Origin: a virus | Lineage: Duplodnaviria > Caudoviricetes | DNA: 64,000 bases | Strand: one strand, 5' to 3' | Virus record (IMG/VR): IMGVR_UViG_3300049988_000245 | Coordinates: 96,001-160,000 of that record | Part shown: positions 11,135-20,514 of the stretch, one piece after another | Layout: each line of letters begins with the position of its first letter | How positions within the stretch are numbered: the first letter of the stretch is position 1 | The notes under the pieces: generated by a model | Database searches by the model: none | Told to the model about the DNA's origin: nothing | Seen by the model: only the letters and a program-made list of their open reading frames with translations | Made by a program: the position numbers and the translations under genes

Positions 11135-12271
11135 TCAGAGCTTGAAATCCGAGAAAGTACCTGAATCCACGTCCTGCTTGGTCTGACCGATCGTGTATTG
11201 CGTGATCTCGGTCTCCTGCGGTGCCACCTGCACCTCAGCACCGGAAATCCACTTGGCCGTCCACGGGAGAGGATTAGCCTTCTGCGGGTAGATCGGCGAC
11301 AGGCCGACCGCGACCAGACGCTTGTTGGCGATCCATTCGACATAGTCGGACAGGAGCGCATAGTTGAGGCCGATCATGCTCCCGTCCTTGAACAGGTACT
11401 CGGCCCACTCCTTCTCCTGGGTGACCGCGTCGGAGAACAGCTTGGTGCATTCCTCCTTGGTCTCCTCGGCGATCTTGGCGAAGTCCGGATCGTCCTGTGG
11501 TAGAATCTTGATCAGCGTCTGGGTGGCGGCGAGGTGAAGATTCTCGTCGCGGCAGATCAGCTTGATGATCTTCGCGTTGCCTTCCATCCGCTTAACCTCG
11601 GCATACGCCCAGGAGCAGGCAAAGCTCACGTAGAACCGAACACCCTCAAGGATGTTCACGCTCATGATGGCCATCCACAGAGCCTTCTTAAGCTCGTATA
11701 GGTCCACCTTGACGGATTCGCCGTTGATCGTGTGCGTACCCTCGCCGAAGAGGTTGTACAGCCCCTCCAGGCGAATCAGGTTGTCATAGTGCTCGGAGAT
11801 GTCCTTGGCGCAATCGACGATCTCGCCGATGTCCATCATCTCATCGAACACCTGGGATGGATTCGGGTAGACGTTCCTGATGATGTGGGTGTACGACCGG
11901 CTGTGAATCGTCTCCGAGAACGCCCACGTGGTGATGAACGCCTCTAGCTCGGGGAGCGAGACGATCGGCAGGAACGCGATGTTGGGGGACCGACCCTGAA
12001 CGGAGTCCAGTAGAATCTGACGCTTCAGATTCGACGTGAAGATGTGCCGTTCGTGATCAGTGAGTTCCTTGAAGTCTTTTGCGTCCTTCATCACGTCAAC
12101 CTCCTGAGGTTGCCAGAAGAACGATAGTTGCTTCTCGGTTAGTTTGTCGAACTGACGATACTTCATCGTATCGAATCGCTGAACGGAGACGCCTCCATTG
12201 GGGTCCAAGAACGCAAGCGCCTGAGTATGGTCTTTACGAGAATTTGCATCAAATACGGACATAAGTAACAC
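11135..12271 (-). CDS. nrdB: ribonucleotide reductase class Ia beta subunit
   Basis: FFWQPQEVD, DSVQGR, ETIHSRSY, DENLH, PQETE motifs. Confidence 0.97.
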   Translation of the reverse strand: MLLMSVFDANSRKDHTQALAFLDPNGGVSVQRFDTMKYRQFDKLTEKQLSFFWQPQEVDVMKDAKDFKELTDHERHIFTSNLKRQILLDSVQGRSPNIAFLPIVSLPELEAFITTWAFSETIHSRSYTHIIRNVYPNPSQVFDEMMDIGEIVDCAKDISEHYDNLIRLEGLYNLFGEGTHTINGESVKVDLYELKKALWMAIMSVNILEGVRFYVSFACSWAYAEVKRMEGNAKIIKLICRDENLHLAATQTLIKILPQDDPDFAKIAEETKEECTKLFSDAVTQEKEWAEYLFKDGSMIGLNYALLSDYVEWIANKRLVAVGLSPIYPQKANPLPWTAKWISGAEVQVAPQETEITQYTIGQTKQDVDSGTFSDFKL

Positions 12272-12851
12272 TCCAATCTTTGCAGTTGCCGCGTTTGGCG
12301 GGATAATCTTGTTTCTTCGTCAAGCGATCTCGAAAGGCTTGATAAACTTTCGGCCACGCTACCTTAAATCTATGCTCGTTTTCTTGGCACCAAGATTTTA
12401 GGCAGTCGGACGCGAAAATCTCGCCCTCCGGTGACCGAATTTCAGAAGCTTTGCTGTTTGGATTGCTGCTTCCAGTCCGAGACACCCCATACATGCCATT
12501 GGCCTCGCCGTAGTGAGGACGGTGATTGGGATGAGTCTTCCCGTACATGCCATTCCGACACCCTGACACATCCCGTCCGTTGTTCCCTCCATATGCGCTG
12601 GGGCTTATGTTGTAGAAATCCGGACTTTTGGCTGCATCATAGGAATCAAGGTAGTGCTGCTCGCGCTCCTGAATTCGAGAATCATCAACGTATTCAAGAA
12701 TGATTCGTTCAAATGAATCTCTACCATATTTTATGTAGGCTCGGCGGAAGTGCTTACCTGATCCGACGTACGAGCTAGAATCTAAGCCAGAATGTCGGCC
12801 AATATACTTCTTACCGTCAAGCTTATTAGTCCAAAGATATATGAATCCCAT
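12249..12851 (-). CDS. GIY-YIG homing endonuclease with NUMOD3-like repeats
   Basis: GFIYLWTNKLDGKKYIGRH; NGMYGK/NGMYG repeats; AT-rich; overlaps nrdB 5' end. Confidence 0.9.
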   Translation of the reverse strand: MGFIYLWTNKLDGKKYIGRHSGLDSSSYVGSGKHFRRAYIKYGRDSFERIILEYVDDSRIQEREQHYLDSYDAAKSPDFYNISPSAYGGNNGRDVSGCRNGMYGKTHPNHRPHYGEANGMYGVSRTGSSNPNSKASEIRSPEGEIFASDCLKSWCQENEHRFKVAWPKVYQAFRDRLTKKQDYPAKRGNCKDWSVTYVRI

Positions 12852-12904
12852 GAACGGATGATACCAAAGGGTATCACCCGTTCTCAACTTCGAAATGTCG
12901 AGAC

Positions 12905-13129
12905 TTAGAGGGTCTCGAACTCGAAGCGATTCTTGATCGACTCGTTGAGGAACTTGGTCTTGCTGTCCGCCGACTCGAAGTTGCTTGCCGTCGAAGCATC
13001 GACGTTGTTGTACCGGTAGGTCTTGCCGCCGATGAAGGCGACTTCGAGCGTCTGCGCGGACGAATCGTAGGCGATGCGGTCGATGTTACCGCTGTTGAAA
13101 TCCGTGCCATTGGTCTTGGTGAAGGACAT
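12905..13129 (-). CDS. KTSC domain protein
   Basis: SGNIDRIAYD..TLEVAF..G..YRY.NV..F..ADSK..F.N..IK.RF. Confidence 0.9.
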   Translation of the reverse strand: MSFTKTNGTDFNSGNIDRIAYDSSAQTLEVAFIGGKTYRYNNVDASTASNFESADSKTKFLNESIKNRFEFETL

Positions 13130-13244
13130 CTGAATCTCTCTCGTATAAGGATTCGACGAACAAATTTGGTTCGACGAAAATACCAATTGCATGGTTAACG
13201 GGTGTTTGGCAAGGTGGACGTACGAAAATCAGAAAGGTTCTAAT

Positions 13245-14096
13245 ATGCCGTTTAACCGTCGCGGGATTCTCGCTGGCCTCCTGGGAACGCCCCTGGGGAT
13301 CACCGCACTGAAGGCGATGCCGCTTCCGGCAGAGACCCAGAAGGCCATCGCGTTCACCCCCGAGGTGCAGAAGGCGGTCGAGAACATTCCCCCGCTCCCG
13401 ACCCCGAAACGCAATCTGCATCCGTTATTCGGATTCCAGACGATCGATGCCGAGCTTGGGTTCGCCTATACCCTGCGCAGCCGATACTCAGATGCGGTGA
13501 CCCTTGCGAATCCTGAGCCGCGCATCTCGATCCAGATTAACAAGGTGGTTGCTGGGGGTACATATTACCCGACGATGGACGCGGCCGAGGACGCGATCTT
13601 CAGTAAGTTCGCCATCACCCATCGCGAGGTGAGAAGCCCAGACAACCCCGAGCATACCAAGTTTCACCTCGTGCGGGCGGCGAACCGGATCGCCCAGACG
13701 ACCCGGCGCGGCATGGGTAACGTCATTCTCGTCCATCGGGATGACCTGCATCTACTCGATACCCCGTGGGTGGCCAACGTGATCCCCGAGCGAATCGGGC
13801 GGTGGTCGAACGTCGGGTTCACCCACAACCGAGTCTCCCAGGTCTGGGTCACCGACCGCCGTGTTCCTGCGATCCCGCACGGGAACGCGCTTGTGGGTTA
13901 TCGCGGATCGGAGTTAGACGCCCCTGCCGTTCTCACGTATCATCCGGGCTTTGGATACAGCTACGCGATGAACGAGAAGCCGGAAACCTACATGCACGTA
14001 GTCGGACTGACTGTGAAAGCCCGAGCGCCCCATACGGACGAGGCTATATGGGCGGAAGAGAAGCGGGGTGCCGTACGCCCCGTTCGCGCCGCATGA
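13245..14096 (+). CDS. Tat-leader protein made of T4-type major capsid protein segments
   Basis: N-terminal NRRGILAGLLG; GFQ...LG..YTLRSRY, RISIQINK, RAANRIAQTTRRGMGN, LVGYRGSELDA match gp23-family motifs. Confidence 0.75.
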   Translation: MPFNRRGILAGLLGTPLGITALKAMPLPAETQKAIAFTPEVQKAVENIPPLPTPKRNLHPLFGFQTIDAELGFAYTLRSRYSDAVTLANPEPRISIQINKVVAGGTYYPTMDAAEDAIFSKFAITHREVRSPDNPEHTKFHLVRAANRIAQTTRRGMGNVILVHRDDLHLLDTPWVANVIPERIGRWSNVGFTHNRVSQVWVTDRRVPAIPHGNALVGYRGSELDAPAVLTYHPGFGYSYAMNEKPETYMHVVGLTVKARAPHTDEAIWAEEKRGAVRPVRAA

Positions 14097-14287
14097 AGCG
14101 GCCTTCCTTAGAGAAGATCGCCCAGGCCCTTCCTCGCTCGCGTATCATGGCAGGCGAGTACACCTACCCGTACGCCGAGGGTGGGCCTCAGCGGCGGGTC
14201 TTCTACGCAGATGTGGGCACGCTTCCCCCGGAGGCGGCCAACCGATTCATCAAATCGCTCATGGAGAAGTACGATGGAACGTCGTAG
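14093..14287 (+). CDS. 64-aa portal (gp20) fragment-like protein
   Basis: GPQRRVFYADVGTLPPEAANRFIKSLMEKY resembles gp20 APERRIFYIDVGNLP..KA..Y...VM..Y; ATGA coupling to upstream gene. Confidence 0.65.
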   Translation: MKRPSLEKIAQALPRSRIMAGEYTYPYAEGGPQRRVFYADVGTLPPEAANRFIKSLMEKYDGTS

Positions 14288-14810
14288 CCTTCTCGCGGCC
14301 GGTGCTGCCGCGATCACCGGTCTGTTCGGCGCCAAGTCGGCTCAGGCGGCGCCCTCGGGCGCTCTCACTCTGGACGAAGCCACGCGGATCGTCGTCGGCA
14401 ACGTTCGTAATCCGCCTGCCCCGGAGGAGATTCAGCGTCTCATCGCGGGGATCAATATGCAGGTAATGAACCGGCTTACCCAAGCTGGCATCGTTGACCC
14501 GCAATACGTAATGACGAGCGCCGTGGTTCGCTTCCGGGGGCAGGTGGTCGAGGCCAAGACACGTAGGCTCTCTTCGCGTTACACGTTCGGAGAGAATGTC
14601 CCGCCGATCGTGCAGGCCGAGGTCGAAGCCACGTTGGTCGAGAGCATCGTGCAGGAGATCACCGCAGAGTTGGTCCGGCCCGAGAACAAGGGTATCCAGT
14701 ATTGTCCATACGAGTTGGTCACCAGTTCCGGGGTCATCCTCGATCCGGAAACGCTCAACCCCACGATATTCTTTCTGACCCGTTTTGGGACCTTCGTGAA
14801 AGCCGCATAG
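14274..14810 (+). CDS. Tat-leader protein made of major capsid protein segments
   Basis: MERRSLLAAG..AQA leader; VEAKTRRLSSRYTF, QEITAE, YCPY..SSGVILDPETLNP..F.TRFG. Confidence 0.78.
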   Translation: MERRSLLAAGAAAITGLFGAKSAQAAPSGALTLDEATRIVVGNVRNPPAPEEIQRLIAGINMQVMNRLTQAGIVDPQYVMTSAVVRFRGQVVEAKTRRLSSRYTFGENVPPIVQAEVEATLVESIVQEITAELVRPENKGIQYCPYELVTSSGVILDPETLNPTIFFLTRFGTFVKAA

Positions 14811-15250
14811 AGTCCTGGCATCCGACCACACATGAGGAAGCGTTGGGCGTTCTCTTGAAGAATGCCCAACGCGACAAGCCGCGTTCGCGCATCGAACAGG
14901 TCGTTGAATGTATCAACCGGCGTGTTTTCGAAAATGTTCGGGAGATCATCAACCCACGTCTGGTCATGGTCGAGCGCGTCATGATGCTCGATTGGGCCGT
15001 CGAGGCTCGGACTCGGAATCTTCGGACACACATGGACTGCGCCGATTTTCGCCAGAGCGGCTACGTCCCCGAGATGATCGAGGCGGCCATTGACGGTATC
15101 ACGGGTGAAATTCTGGAGATGCAGGCCGGGACGAGTTTATCGTACTGTCCCTACGCGCTGGTGACCGGGCACGAGCAAATTGTCGATCCGACCACCTCTG
15201 GTGAATACGTCTATTTCCGTACCTGTTACGGATTGTACGAGCTACCTTAG
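14807..15250 (+). CDS. third major capsid protein fragment paralog (start uncertain)
   Basis: VEARTRNL, ITGEI, YCPY..DPTT..YFRTCYG; start could be ATA at 14807 or TTG at 14843. Confidence 0.65.
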   Translation: MESWHPTTHEEALGVLLKNAQRDKPRSRIEQVVECINRRVFENVREIINPRLVMVERVMMLDWAVEARTRNLRTHMDCADFRQSGYVPEMIEAAIDGITGEILEMQAGTSLSYCPYALVTGHEQIVDPTTSGEYVYFRTCYGLYELP

Positions 15251-15507
15251 CTGTTGAGCGCGCGCAGCAGGCTGTCGAAGCCGTGGCCTCGTGCGCGCCC
15301 CTTCAGGAAGCGCCACTTGCCCGTGCTGGGCCAGTAATCGACAGACTCGATAATGCGAAGGTGAGGCCCGTGGGGGCTCAACTCGCGAACCATGAAGCCC
15401 AAATGCTCCAGCTTCGCGATCTGCTCTGGCGCCTTGTCTGCGCGCTCCTGGCGCTGTTCCTTACGGTGCGCACGCAGGTCGTTGAAGATGTCTCCCATGT
15501 CGCCCAT
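15247..15507 (-). CDS. hypothetical protein
   Basis: 86 aa ORF, DYWPSTGKW motif. Confidence 0.6.
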   Translation of the reverse strand: MGDMGDIFNDLRAHRKEQRQERADKAPEQIAKLEHLGFMVRELSPHGPHLRIIESVDYWPSTGKWRFLKGRARGHGFDSLLRALNS

Positions 15508-15510
15508 GAT

Positions 15511-15960
15511 TCAGCCCTCGATCTCGCCAACCTCGTAGTGATTCCCCACCTTACCACCATATTTGATTCGGAAGTGAAATGCATCGTTCGGATTCCCGAA
15601 AAAGAACACGTTGGTTAACGGGAGAACCTTGCCGTACTCGATTGGCATCTGGGATCGGAACAGGCTCACCCGCATGTGCCAGAGCGAAGATACGTTCTCG
15701 ATGATCCACTCGTGCATCTCGCGATCGTACGGATGCGCGTACAGCGTCACCATATGGGGGAACGTTTCTTCCACCCAGGCCCAATACTGCTTGTTATTGG
15801 ACGTGTTGAGTTCGTCCTTGGCGTGAACCCGTTTTGTTTCCGGGTCCATCACCGCCAGCGGATGGATATGGCCCTGGATGATGTAGAGACGGCGCAATAA
15901 CTTACGTCGTAAAATTCTTGTTATTCGAAATAATCTTGCTAGTAGCACGTTTACCCCCAT
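15511..15960 (-). CDS. FKMRW-family protein (extended)
   Basis: FPH..EWIIENV..FFFGNPNDAFHFRIKYG. Confidence 0.65.
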   Translation of the reverse strand: MGVNVLLARLFRITRILRRKLLRRLYIIQGHIHPLAVMDPETKRVHAKDELNTSNNKQYWAWVEETFPHMVTLYAHPYDREMHEWIIENVSSLWHMRVSLFRSQMPIEYGKVLPLTNVFFFGNPNDAFHFRIKYGGKVGNHYEVGEIEG

Positions 15961-16160
15961 GACATTTTGAATTCCAGGGCTGTCGTATCGTTTTTGATCA
16001 AGACATTTCCACAAAGTGTAAGTTCCCAATCAAGAAATTCTATTCCTACGTGCTCTTTCAACCACGAGCGAATATTATATCGATCAATCTCAGATTCTGA
16101 AGTGAACATGTGTGGTAAGTCAACGTTGTGATTTGCAATTTTGTGATATCGAAACCTCAT
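15951..16160 (-). CDS. FKMRW-family small protein
   Basis: MRFRYH..WLKEHVG..IKNDTTALEFKMSWG; ATGA overlap. Confidence 0.75.
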   Translation of the reverse strand: MRFRYHKIANHNVDLPHMFTSESEIDRYNIRSWLKEHVGIEFLDWELTLCGNVLIKNDTTALEFKMSWG

Positions 16161-16414
16161 CCCCACCTCACGCGAAACGCCGTGGCATCGACATCTGTCG
16201 AGATGTCGATGGTCGTCATGTCGGCGCGCCAGCGGGGTACGACCGGCTTCACCCCGTAGGCGTAGTCGGGCGGGCCGAACTGCTCGCGGCACCAATGGAT
16301 CGCCTCGATCATGTTGGCGTTCGTGGTGAAATAGGTTGGGGAAACAATCATCTCGAAACCGAACGGGTATTTGGTTCCCTTCAGCCGATAAAGCGGTTTG
16401 AACTTGATCTCCAT
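16157..16414 (-). CDS. FKMRW-family small protein
   Basis: YPFGF..WCREQFG..DVDATAFRVRWG. Confidence 0.8.
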   Translation of the reverse strand: MEIKFKPLYRLKGTKYPFGFEMIVSPTYFTTNANMIEAIHWCREQFGPPDYAYGVKPVVPRWRADMTTIDISTDVDATAFRVRWG

Positions 16415-16662
16415 CAGCACCACCGCATTTTGAAGGCGAGCGCATCGGGCTCATTTTGGAATACAATATGGAATCCGTTGCACCGGAACGCTTCGCTTTG
16501 GTATCCGATTTGATCCATGCACCAGCGTAAGGCGAGGTCGCGCGTCTCGTAGTAGCTATCTCCGTCGAAGACATGCTGTTTTAGAGAGAACTGATACGGG
16601 TAGGTTAGTTTCCGCCCTTTCCGGTCCTCGAATACAGTCGGCTCTTGAAACCAGTCCACCAT
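16414..16662 (-). CDS. FKMRW-family small protein
   Basis: YPYQF..WCMDQIG..FQNEPDALAFKMRWC. Confidence 0.8.
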   Translation of the reverse strand: MVDWFQEPTVFEDRKGRKLTYPYQFSLKQHVFDGDSYYETRDLALRWCMDQIGYQSEAFRCNGFHIVFQNEPDALAFKMRWC

Positions 16663-16928
16663 CAGCAGTACCTCAACTTGAATTCGAGCGCCTGTGGGAG
16701 GTCTCGCATATAAATGGTTCCACGGTGTCCGACGCGCCAATCCTTTCCGTGCGGGCCGACGTTCTCGACCAGCCATTCGGCGATGAAATCGGGTGTGTAA
16801 TCGGCACCGGCCCCAATATCAGGATTGGTGGTTTCAACGCAGCCCGTTCCGAACACCAGCCGATGATGGCGTGGTTGGAACATGTGCTCGTTCGCGTTCA
16901 CCACGTGATGGTATGAGATTCTGGTCAT
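16662..16928 (-). CDS. FKMRW-family small protein
   Basis: WLVENVG..RDLPQALEFKLRYC. Confidence 0.75.
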   Translation of the reverse strand: MTRISYHHVVNANEHMFQPRHHRLVFGTGCVETTNPDIGAGADYTPDFIAEWLVENVGPHGKDWRVGHRGTIYMRDLPQALEFKLRYC

Positions 16929-17453: not shown

Positions 17454-19934
17454 TCAAATCCGGCAGGCGTCGCACTCTTCTTCGTCTGCGGAGATATTTT
17501 CGTCTTCGGCGACAGCTTCCTTCGCGTGAACGTCGATCTCACCGGCGGAATCATTGGTGTTGTTGTAGTAGAGTGTCTTACCGCCCCACTTGTAGTGCAG
17601 CATGATGTGCTTTAGCAGTTCTGACATCGGCACGCGATCGTCTTCGTAGAACTTCGGGTTATACGAGGTGTTAACCGAAATGGCCTGATCGATGTACTTC
17701 TGAAGAATCGCGCAAAGCTGAAGGTAGCCGAGCGGGCTCTTCTGGTCCCAGAGGAGTTCGTAGTTCTTCTTGAGCTTGCGAATCTCAGGAACGACCTGCT
17801 TGAGCACGCCGTGCTTGGACTGCTTCACCGAGACGTACGAGCGCGGCGCTTCGATTCCGTTGGTCGCGTTGGCGATCTGGGCGGAGGTCTCGGCGGGCAT
17901 CAGCGCCATCAGCGTGGCATTGCGGATTCCATACTTCTTCAGGTCGGCGCGGAGAGAATCCCAATCCAGGCGCTCTTCGTGGGCGATCAATTCGTCCACT
18001 TCGGCCTTGCGGGTGTCGATCGGGACGATGCCTCGATGATATTTTGTATTTTTGGAGAGTAGGCAAGCGCCCTTCTCCTTGGCAAGCTCCACCGACGCCT
18101 TAATCAAATAGTACGACCATGCCTCGGCGTACTGATCGACCAGGGCGATACCCGAGCCATCCGTGTACTTGACGCCGTTCTTCGCGAGGAAATACGCGAA
18201 GTTGATGATGCCGATACCGAGCGGACGGTACTCCTGGGTGTGCTTCTGAGCGGCCAGAACAGGGTATTCCTGATGGTCGAGCAGGTTGTCGAGGGCGCGG
18301 ACCGCAAGGCGGCAGATGCGCTCGAAATCGTGCGGCGACTTGATCACGCCCCAATTGATCGCGGAGAGCGTGCACAGGGCGATGCGGGACATGTCGTCCT
18401 CGCGCTCAACCTCGACCATGTTGGTCTTCGAGTACCAGGGCGTACCGGCCTCATCCAAACCGGATTCGGTTTTCACGGAGGAGCCGACCACATTGACGAT
18501 CGCGTTGTTCGCGCGAGCCGCTTCCATGAAGGTCACGAGTTCGGCCACCGGGATCGAGAGGCGCTGCGTCTGCACGGTACCCATCGGGGTCGTGGTGAGG
18601 GTAATCTCGCAGCAGAGGTTCGACATATGGACGGGCGCCACCTTCTCGTCGAACGACGAATGGGTGTTGGCGTTGTCCACGTTCATCAGGTAGATTCGGC
18701 CAGTGTCCTTGCGCTCGTTCACGAACGTGGTGAACAGTTCGAGGGCCTTGACCTTCTTCTTGCGCAGGCGGGTGTTGCGCTCGGCGGTCTCGTAAAGCTG
18801 CTTGAACTTGTCCTGATCGGCGAAGAACGCCTCGTACAGCCCAGGGACATCCGAAGGAGAGAACAGGGTGATCTCACCGCCAGTGATCAGTCGCTCATAG
18901 AAGAGCTTCGAGAACTGAACGCCGTAGTCCATGTGACGGACGCGGTTCTCTTCGACGCCCTTGTTGTTCTTCAGAACGAGGAGGCTTTCCACCTCAAGGT
19001 GCCAGATCGGGTAGTAGAGAGTCGCCGAGCCCTTGCGGACGCCGCCCTGGTTGCAGGAATTCACAGCCGACTGGAAATGCTTGAAGAACGGCGTCAGACC
19101 GGTGTGAGAGGCGTCACCGTTCCGGATGGGCGAGCCGAGCGCGCGGATCGAGCCCGCGCCGATGCCGATACCGGCACGCTGAGATACGTAGTCGATGACG
19201 GCGGCCGAGGTCGCGTTGATCGACTTCAGGGAGTCGCCGCACTCAATCAGGGTGCACGAGGAGTACTGACGCACAGCCGTACGCACGCCCGACATAATCG
19301 GCGTGGGGAGGGAGATTTCGTGCTTCGAGATGGACTCGTAGTAGTCCCGCACCCACTGGAGGCGGGTTTCCTTGGGGTATCGGGCGAACAGCACCGCCGC
19401 GACGAGGATGTAGAGAATCTGTGGGGTCTCAAGAATCTCGCCTGTGACGCGATTCTGGACTAGATACTTGCCGCGCATCTGCTCCATGGCGACGTAGGTC
19501 AGCGCCATGTCTCGCTCATGATTGACGAATCCGCCGATCTCGTCCCACTCGGACTCGGTGTAGTCGGTGAGCAGCGCGGGGTCGTAAAAACCCTTCTCGA
19601 CGTTCGTCTTGATCACGTCGAACAGGCGAAGCGCCTGAAAGCGGCCATGGACCTGCTTGCGCAGATGATAGTTGACCAGACGACCAGCAACGTACTGGTA
19701 GTTGGGGTGATCTTCGGAGATCAGGTCGGCCGCAGCCTTGATCAGAGTCTCTTGAATATCAGAGGTCTTCATACCATCGAAGAACTGAATCTGCGAACGC
19801 AGTTCGACTTCGGATGCGCTGACGCCGGACAAGCCCTCGGTCGCCCAGAAGACGACCTTGTGCAGCTTTTCCAGATTCAGGGGTTCTTTAGTGCCATCAC
19901 GCTTCGTGACGTTGATCTTCATACCAATATCCAT
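17454..19934 (-). CDS. nrdA: ribonucleotide reductase class Ia alpha subunit with ATP cone
   Basis: VTKRDG ATP cone, PTPIM, SSC, NLCCEI finger loop, PAETSAQ, C-terminal CDAC. Confidence 0.97.
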   Translation of the reverse strand: MDIGMKINVTKRDGTKEPLNLEKLHKVVFWATEGLSGVSASEVELRSQIQFFDGMKTSDIQETLIKAAADLISEDHPNYQYVAGRLVNYHLRKQVHGRFQALRLFDVIKTNVEKGFYDPALLTDYTESEWDEIGGFVNHERDMALTYVAMEQMRGKYLVQNRVTGEILETPQILYILVAAVLFARYPKETRLQWVRDYYESISKHEISLPTPIMSGVRTAVRQYSSCTLIECGDSLKSINATSAAVIDYVSQRAGIGIGAGSIRALGSPIRNGDASHTGLTPFFKHFQSAVNSCNQGGVRKGSATLYYPIWHLEVESLLVLKNNKGVEENRVRHMDYGVQFSKLFYERLITGGEITLFSPSDVPGLYEAFFADQDKFKQLYETAERNTRLRKKKVKALELFTTFVNERKDTGRIYLMNVDNANTHSSFDEKVAPVHMSNLCCEITLTTTPMGTVQTQRLSIPVAELVTFMEAARANNAIVNVVGSSVKTESGLDEAGTPWYSKTNMVEVEREDDMSRIALCTLSAINWGVIKSPHDFERICRLAVRALDNLLDHQEYPVLAAQKHTQEYRPLGIGIINFAYFLAKNGVKYTDGSGIALVDQYAEAWSYYLIKASVELAKEKGACLLSKNTKYHRGIVPIDTRKAEVDELIAHEERLDWDSLRADLKKYGIRNATLMALMPAETSAQIANATNGIEAPRSYVSVKQSKHGVLKQVVPEIRKLKKNYELLWDQKSPLGYLQLCAILQKYIDQAISVNTSYNPKFYEDDRVPMSELLKHIMLHYKWGGKTLYYNNTNDSAGEIDVHAKEAVAEDENISADEEECDACRI

Positions 19935-20046: not shown

Positions 20047-20514
20047 CTAAGGCTTCAGTGGTTCTGCAATTTCTTTGTCGATGATGATGGGGAATTCTGG
20101 TACGGGCAGAGATTCCACATCGAATCCTTCACCCGCGTCGTACGAGAACGAGATATGCGGGTTGTATTCTGGAAAGTCGTACGAGGCGCCACGGCTCATC
20201 GCGAGGTCGAATCGCGTCCGCAGGTACGAGGATTCCAGATGGAGCACCAGAACGGGCTTCTTCGTGTTGTGGTCTTCCCAGACCTCCCAACCGGTTGCTT
20301 TGGCTTCATGACCGATGTCGTGCTCGGCTCGCCAGAAGAGCGGCTTCTTGCTGTACACGATGGTGGTGTGATAGCGAGATGGGACGATTGGATTTTTGAT
20401 CTTGAAGTCATCGACAAACTTTGAGAGGTCTTTGACCGTCTGTTTGTCAAACTTCACGCATACGTACAGGCCGTTTTTCGGCTCTGAGTCTTCCATAATT
20501 TCAGCAAAACGCAT
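20047..20514 (-). CDS. acb1: anti-CBASS 2H phosphodiesterase Acb1 / T4 57B-like
   Basis: GLYV..KF, NP.VP, HTTIVYS, LVLHLESSYL, GASYDF..YNPHISFSY, EPLK align with recalled T4 57B sequence. Confidence 0.85.
   Translation of the reverse strand: MRFAEIMEDSEPKNGLYVCVKFDKQTVKDLSKFVDDFKIKNPIVPSRYHTTIVYSKKPLFWRAEHDIGHEAKATGWEVWEDHNTKKPVLVLHLESSYLRTRFDLAMSRGASYDFPEYNPHISFSYDAGEGFDVESLPVPEFPIIIDKEIAEPLKP

Follow-up and report, generated by a model that had tools for sequence, protein, structure and literature searches.

A portal-like gene within a cassette of capsid-gene fragments

The window analysed here, a 64,000-nucleotide stretch of phage DNA, corresponds to bases 96001–160000 of a 265,895-bp IMG/VR record with a GC content of 56% and an estimated completeness of 57%. 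Between two ribonucleotide reductase genes that serve as anchors, nrdB (11135–12271, −) on the left and nrdA (17454–19934, −) on the right, the window carries four overlapping plus-strand genes. The second of these, P0001 (14093–14287, +), is a portal-derived gene of 64 codons, assigned as such on the basis of its translation, a match to the Portal_T4 profile and the presence of an ortholog, P0010, on L099, a 60.8-kb contig from a related phage. The reading frame, translation and TAG stop codon are identical to those given in the original prediction, as are the two features that connect the gene to its neighbours. Its ATG (14093–14095) overlaps the TGA (14094–14096) of the upstream gene ORF1, which generates an ATGA start/stop overlap (14093–14096, +), identical in L099, that suggests translational coupling. 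At its other end, a GGAG Shine-Dalgarno sequence (14263–14266, +) within the final P0001 codons lies 7 nt before the ATG of ORF3 at 14274, and the start of ORF3 overlaps the final 14 nt of P0001. The 17 nt up to this downstream ATG are identical between the window and L099.

The base composition of P0001 is of a coding type, with GC values of 0.58, 0.48 and 0.77 at the three codon positions and the same pattern in the neighbouring genes. An assembly artefact is excluded for this stretch, because contigs assembled from leaf or silage metagenomes in four further runs, which belong to different studies, span P0001 and both of its gene junctions; the source of P0001 is a giant phage of the leaf microbiome. 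A frameshift fusion between ORF1 and P0001 was also considered and rejected, as there is no slippery heptamer and the P0010 frame of L099 is closed 14 codons upstream. A promoter and terminator scan gave nothing that exceeded shuffled sequences, and there was no RNA dataset among the sequencing runs listed as carrying this sequence. The N-terminus of P0001 (MKRPSLEKIAQ) has no hydrophobic stretch and does not form a twin-arginine leader.

The original prediction placed a portal fragment among capsid fragments, and the flanking genes bear this out, given that ORF1, ORF3 and, weakly, ORF4 match the Gp23 profile PF07068. ORF1 (13245–14096, +) encodes a truncated gp23-like protein of 283 aa with a twin-arginine-like leader (MPFNRRGILAGLLG...); it aligns with profile positions 219–263 (E=9.5e-6) and is 35% identical over 101 aa to the MCP of the Sinorhizobium jumbo phage Phosso (469 kb), which is the nearest named relative of this phage, followed by XacN1. 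Its homologs in L099 and in a second related contig, L098, are 74% and 66% identical, respectively. The dN/dS of ORF1 is 0.19–0.23, and an extra 11-residue C-terminal tail is found only in the two genomes with the portal gene (the window and L099). ORF3 (14274–14810, +) is a 178-aa gp23-like mini-protein in which a leader (MERRSLLAAGAAA...AQA) precedes E-loop/spine-helix and C-terminal pieces; it matches Gp23 positions 316–350 (E=5.5e-10) and aligns with the Phosso MCP in two blocks. Its homolog in L098, P0008, is 58% identical, and the body of ORF3 is missing from L099. ORF4 (14702–15250, +) is a leaderless paralog of ORF3 (26% identity over 144 aa) that overlaps the end of ORF3 and matches Gp23 positions 314–350 only weakly (E=0.022). 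Its start is uncertain and could be the TTG at 14702 or a later TTG at 14843 or 14855. An ORF4 homolog is present at L099:10182–10691 (dN/dS 0.19), and L098 has no counterpart. ORF1, ORF3 and ORF4 retain complementary pieces of the capsid fold.

The conserved RR-hydrophobic leaders of ORF1 and ORF3 look like Tat signals when judged by eye; neither leader gave a signal match in Pfam or NCBIfam, including any Tat-signal model, and the NCBIfam search as a whole returned zero matches. The apparent start of ORF4 lies within the 3'-terminal part of ORF3 and uses a different frame (14702–14810). At L099:10182–10262, the ATG of the ORF4 homolog is placed with respect to P0010 just as the ORF3 ATG is with respect to P0001, and the first codons of this homolog (MVQRN) resemble the start of the ORF3 leader.

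The cassette is enclosed by a divergent KTSC-domain gene on its left (12905–13192, −; PF13619, E=1.3e-18), which is conserved in L099, and by a convergent 86-aa gene on its right (15247–15507, −; PHROG 27571), whose homologs lie directly after the cassette in both L098 and L099. The L099 homolog of nrdB carries PF00268 and shows 96% amino acid identity, while the homologs of nrdA carry PF03477, PF00317 and PF02867 and show 95.6–96.5% amino acid identity. Full portal, capsid and large terminase genes are absent from the 57%-complete record. Several further features of this neighbourhood were observed. An ORF resembling a GIY-YIG-type homing endonuclease by motif lies in the interval between nrdB and the KTSC gene (12249–12887, −); L099 has no such ORF there and its KTSC gene directly follows nrdB. 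Just past nrdA, 6 kb from the cassette, is an anti-CBASS-type gene, a homolog of Acb1 (20047–20514, −), whose L098 and L099 homologs carry PF23474 (Acb1) in precomputed Pfam annotation. The record also encodes a large paralog family of about 70 ORFs, mostly of 80–130 aa (for example, 15951–16928, −, in the window, and 96027–97833, 133782–136154 and 198596–200343 in genome coordinates). Members end in a domain of ~50 aa with the pattern W(C/L)xExxG ... DW ... AxxFK(M/L)RW(G/C) and no Pfam match, and about 30 of the ORFs were recovered at E<1e-6 with an HMM built from a six-member seed.

Portal homology and conservation of P0001

The portal-profile search called for in the original prediction gave a positive result. 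Pfam Portal_T4 (PF07230) matched P0001 with 23.9 bits (E=2.1e-5), above the curated gathering cut-off of 22.9 bits, and aligned residues 32–61 with profile positions 204–233 of 433, while the portal family PHROG 213 matched at E=1.8e-5. A tblastn search of 50,697 phage records with P0001 matched 782 of them, typically across residues 4–60; all the matches listed fell within annotated portal genes, and the best was to Ralstonia phage RSP15 (36% identity, E=2e-5). An alignment of P0001 with the corresponding portal segments from 14 contigs of related jumbo phages had no gaps in its 64 columns, and L6, E7, I9, P32, R34, R35, F37, D40 and G42 were invariant. The motif previously quoted as that of T4 gp20 is in fact the family consensus, from which the sequence of T4 itself differs. 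The tip of P0001 (TLPP) looks closer to generic T4-type portals than to the SLSG, NMPS or GIPV found in its own clade. A phmmer search of PDB sequences with P0001 gave no portal match, and a blastn search of phage genomes with the cassette gave zero matches.

Like the equivalent part of a T4-type portal, P0001 has the strand motif PxRRVFYxDVGxL followed by a helix. However, T4-type portals have 520–600 aa, and the 64 aa of P0001 lack the wing, crown, tunnel loop, return stem helix and second and third clip strands, so the full architecture that can build a dodecameric channel, with two stem helices and a complete clip, is not present. Given this length and its collinearity only with gp20 ~255–312, P0001 is a portal fragment and not a portal.

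P0010 is also 64 aa long and is 67% identical to P0001 over its full length. It emerged with a profile query, whereas a word-based protein search with P0001 alone recovered only P0001 itself. The gene order on L099 is nrdB, the KTSC gene, the ORF1 homolog, an ATGA junction, P0010, a 14-nt overlap, the next gene, the 86-aa gene and nrdA. Between P0001 and P0010 there are 58 substitutions in 195 nucleotides and no indels, the differences being distributed as 16, 11 and 31 over the three codon positions, and the P0001 frame is the sole frame open in both genomes. With the overlaps excluded, the remaining 58 codons have 27.5 changes per 130.8 non-synonymous sites and 25.5 per 43.2 synonymous sites (dN=0.25, dS=1.16, dN/dS=0.21; Fisher p=8e-6), which indicates that the P0001 frame is under purifying selection; the neighbours ORF1 and ORF4 give a dN/dS of 0.19. 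The earlier claim that this is not random decay is therefore upheld by an intact 64-codon ortholog with a dN/dS of 0.21. Collectively, we consider it very probable that P0001 is a genuine, selected gene derived from a portal gene.

The original prediction also asked whether the ORF is co-conserved with the capsid fragments, and took its absence from relatives that keep the flanking genes as refuting; co-conservation held in only one of the two relatives, so this refuting condition applies in part. L099 retains the portal ORF, but L098, which is a contig of 7.4 kb from an NCBI MAG bin and encodes a NrdA that is 95.6% identical, retains only the ORF1 and ORF3 homologs, which are separated by 22 nt with neither the portal ORF nor ORF4. 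P0001 is thus dispensable, since L098 keeps both flanking gene types without it. The three relatives have three layouts (ORF1-P0001-ORF3-ORF4 in the window, ORF1-P0010-ORF4 in L099 and ORF1-ORF3 in L098). Their cassette proteins are 58–74% identical, versus about 96% for NrdA and NrdB. No further related locus was found among viral and metagenome contigs with P0001, ORF3 or ORF1-alignment queries, and none of 80 NrdB-linked viral loci had a cassette homolog. Phosso and five related IMG/VR jumbo genomes, three of the five complete, encode one portal each and no second portal piece; among the relatives compared, the portal piece was found only in this phage and L099.

The portal clip in P0001 and in other small proteins

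To locate P0001 on the portal, it was placed on the T4 gp20 structures 3JA7 and 6UZC with the Phosso portal as a bridge. Residues 6–64 correspond to gp20 ~255–312, and the portal-collinear segment, residues 5–60 (14105–14272, +; gp20 ~255–308), comprises stem helix alpha5, clip strand beta1, the clip tip and clip helix alpha6 in a gap-free alignment. In T4 gp20, residues 255–278 form stem helix alpha5 and residues 279–358 form the clip, which consists of three strands and helix alpha6 (PMC4493910). The clip lies outside the capsid, where the packaging ATPase gp17 and the neck protein gp13 dock, and its sheet forms across subunits, one of which contributes a single strand and its neighbour the other two (PMC4493910).

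The best-conserved core of P0001 is residues 32–61 (14186–14275, +), a unit of clip strand beta1, tip and helix that is supported by the Pfam stretch, AlphaFold2 (AF2) and a clip-family profile. AF2 predicted a strand at residues 33–39 and a helix at residues 46–61, a block with pLDDT 84–89 that is the only confident part of the model, with residues 1–25 below 50. Of 13 clip-strand positions, 12 in P0010 and 10 in P0001 carry the clade consensus residue. The strand and helix half of P0001 remains portal-like, whereas the stem-helix half has diverged, is degenerate and contains prolines, yet is conserved between P0001 and P0010. The exposed helix residues of P0001 are unlike those of clade portals, and the protein ends directly after this helix, without the second and third clip strands.

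The gp20 tip residues that touch gp17 are N291, M292, R295 and K296, and a synthetic gp20 peptide covering residues 288–311 binds gp17 and inhibits packaging in vitro, as Sun et al. 2015 report citing earlier work (PMC4493910). By alignment, this peptide corresponds to residues 40–63 of P0001, although P0001 is a natural gene and has E47 and A48 in place of R295 and K296. The equivalent residues of P0010 are D and A, so the tip is acidic or neutral in this pair but basic in the T4-type portal. This charge reversal argues against T4-style docking to the terminase.

An exhaustive search combined with a profile search identified stand-alone clip-like small proteins of 52–189 aa on long T4-like phage contigs. 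Their family alignment (A3) comprises P0011–P0013, P0016–P0019, P0021, P0022, P0024–P0028, P0030 and P0031, together with parts of P0004 and P0005. Members contain VFYIDVGQLPPxKAEAFVE once or twice, with WxPVRPxxxTRVE after it; together these motifs represent a whole clip, and AF2 confidently predicted a beta-alpha-beta-beta arrangement for one member (pLDDT 85.6). A Foldseek comparison of the P0012 model with the PDB gave nothing significant, with portals missing from the top-ranked entries, a non-match that is expected if the P0012 sheet is intrachain, given that the portal sheet forms between subunits. Genes of this family occur at L094:8001–8312, L100:6001–6231, L101:6001–6345 and L102:6001–6270 in unrelated T4-like phage contigs; some encode an N-terminal CGNCGWDG cysteine motif and some have two tandem clip units. 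P0001 matches HMM positions 22–47 of 94 in the clip-family profile (hmmsearch, 24.3 bits), contains the same strand-helix unit (VFYxDVGxLPPxKAxxF) and is 42–58% identical to members over 20–30 residues. Like these proteins, it is a small free-standing ORF, but it consists of the first clip half and a stem remnant, with no WxPVRPxxxTRVE strands to complete a beta-alpha-beta-beta unit. Genomic context also differs: three clip-family lineages adjoin PF12322 baseplate and gp15-like genes and another is in a replication module, whereas nrdB and nrdA flank the capsid-fragment cassette that contains P0001.

Head-protein pieces encoded as small ORFs recur within this jumbo-phage clade. Extra ORFs with gp23 pieces number two in Phosso and zero to two in the related IMG/VR genomes. 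Like P0001, the extra Gp23-fragment genes of Phosso- and XacN1-like phages are short ORFs with a single conserved head-protein piece outside the head module, but they are capsid pieces, and the six relatives searched have no second portal piece. Outside the window, a 153-aa ORF at genome positions 175996–176457 (L002:1480–1941) combines a gp23 N-terminal motif, which we take to be the T4 Gol peptide region, with an FKxRW-type domain, and aligns with Gp23 profile positions 4–46 (46.9 bits). Phosso XYS97328.1 has a gp23 C-terminal motif ahead of an end similar to the FKxRW type. At Phosso PV764938 L012:3676–4356 (record 182175–182855), the CDS of XYS97433.1 starts at 182439, inside a 226-codon ORF whose upstream part encodes a gp23 N-terminal motif; the annotated start of XYS97433.1 may be too far downstream.

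Possible roles of a free-standing clip surface

Among Avs1–4, the portal is presumably sensed by Avs4 only. The original prediction had named receptors of the Avs2 and Avs4 types as portal sensors; portal recognition within this group stands, as Avs1–4 together sense the large terminase and portal (PMC13581612), but the naming of Avs2 is probably wrong. Capsid and portal are each sensed by several Avs families (PMC13581612). EcAvs4 binds the stem and clip of the monomeric portal, and SpbK docks on the clip helix (PMC12847820).

The same clip region therefore binds gp17 and gp13 (PMC4493910) as well as immune sensors (PMC12847820), and on this basis we tentatively propose, from the location of the fragment and the literature, that the P0001 protein imitates the docking surface of the portal in free form and competes for a clip binder. 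On this reading, P0001 is an accessory gene maintained by selection, which originated when about 57 codons within a T4-type portal gene were captured in frame, and its separately translated 64-aa product would act as a monomeric copy of the exposed surface. Three kinds of partner are candidates: a host portal sensor of the Avs4, Avs11 or SpbK type, a portal protomer that is not yet assembled and offers its beta-hairpin, and a packaging or neck protein, whether from this phage or from a competitor. Strand pairing with such a hairpin, or recognition by a sensor that reads sheet or shape, would be consistent with how well the strand has been kept. That P0001 works through some natural partner of the clip is plausible, though short of probable; taken separately, an immune sensor is an unlikely partner, and one from the portal, terminase or neck is rather unlikely. 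The stand-alone clip-like family on T4-like contigs provides a precedent for a clip mimic. Counted against the proposal are the missing second and third clip strands, the low-confidence N-terminal half, the helix residues that are unlike those of clade portals, the absence of the gene from L098 and the lack of a second portal piece in the five related genomes. The export-like leaders of its operon partners hint at a role unrelated to head assembly.

Such a role is the core of an alternative that we regard as possible, if less than probable, and nearly as likely as the clip mimic: P0001 could have been exapted to serve ORF1, ORF3 or ORF4, be it as a small subunit, as a chaperone or by Tat 'hitch-hiking' with them, with its portal ancestry reduced to history. 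This would suit the tight coupling of P0001 and P0010 to ORF1 and the next gene in both genomes, the ORF1 tail that occurs only alongside them, the N-terminal half that is conserved between the orthologs despite having no stem-helix character, and the similar rates at which the cassette genes evolve. It sits less well with the clip strand, which is still the most portal-conserved part and nearly the clade consensus over 13 residues, with the persistence of ORF1 and ORF3 in L098 without P0001, and with export leaders that are unsupported by any profile. A narrower proposal, that of the original prediction, which we consider plausible but improbable, is that P0001 might act as an anti-sensor decoy that occupies the portal-sensing domain of a STAND or TIR receptor without activating it, the gp23 fragments doing likewise for capsid sensors. 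The footprints of EcAvs4 on the stem and clip and of SpbK on the clip helix (PMC12847820) would match such a decoy, as would the sensing of both capsid and portal by several Avs families (PMC13581612), the nearby Acb1 homolog (PF23474 on its L098 and L099 homologs) and the fast evolution of the cassette relative to NrdA (58–74% versus 96%), which fits conflict genes. However, an epitope-bearing fragment could equally well act as a sensor trigger, two of the capsid pieces appear to leave the cytoplasm in which the sensors reside, L098 does without P0001, and no described anti-defence protein of this kind was found in the literature searched.

Two further explanations would assign no function to the peptide. 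It is very unlikely that P0001 is mainly a spacer that carries ribosomes and the GGAG sequence to the downstream gene: the upstream ATGA, the Shine-Dalgarno sequence inside its 3' end and the final 17 nt that are identical in L099 are compatible with this, but the 58 non-overlapping codons have a dN/dS of 0.21, which speaks against such a spacer, and ORF3 in L098 has its own AGGAA site across the 22-nt spacer. Less probable still is a neutral relic, an undecayed piece of a scrambled second head module. The four head-gene pieces in a non-native order, the differing cassette content of the three relatives and the lack of any close homolog besides one ortholog could be read in this way, but the frame is intact with zero indels at 30% nucleotide divergence, the excess of synonymous changes is significant and the coding GC3 signature is present.

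Extending the clip-mimic proposal to the wider clade is speculative, and we hold it to be doubtful: these jumbo phages might routinely build small, selected mimic genes from single head-protein surfaces (the portal clip, the capsid N-arm/Gol region and the capsid P-domain), in which case P0001 would be a competitor that blinds portal sensors or sabotages the portal assembly or packaging of rivals. Portal and capsid are recognition targets of many bacterial immune receptors, and the portal clip is a hub for the packaging motor and neck. If P0001 is a true mimic, it would represent a selected, free-standing clip surface that provides a ready-made probe of clip interactions, and might define a new class of phage genes for counter-defence or inter-phage competition. 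If its role is instead unrelated, P0001 is still a clean example of a fragment-born gene with measurable purifying selection. In either case, the three layouts found in three relatives illustrate gene birth in giant phages, in which in-frame pieces of essential genes are captured and then shuffled.
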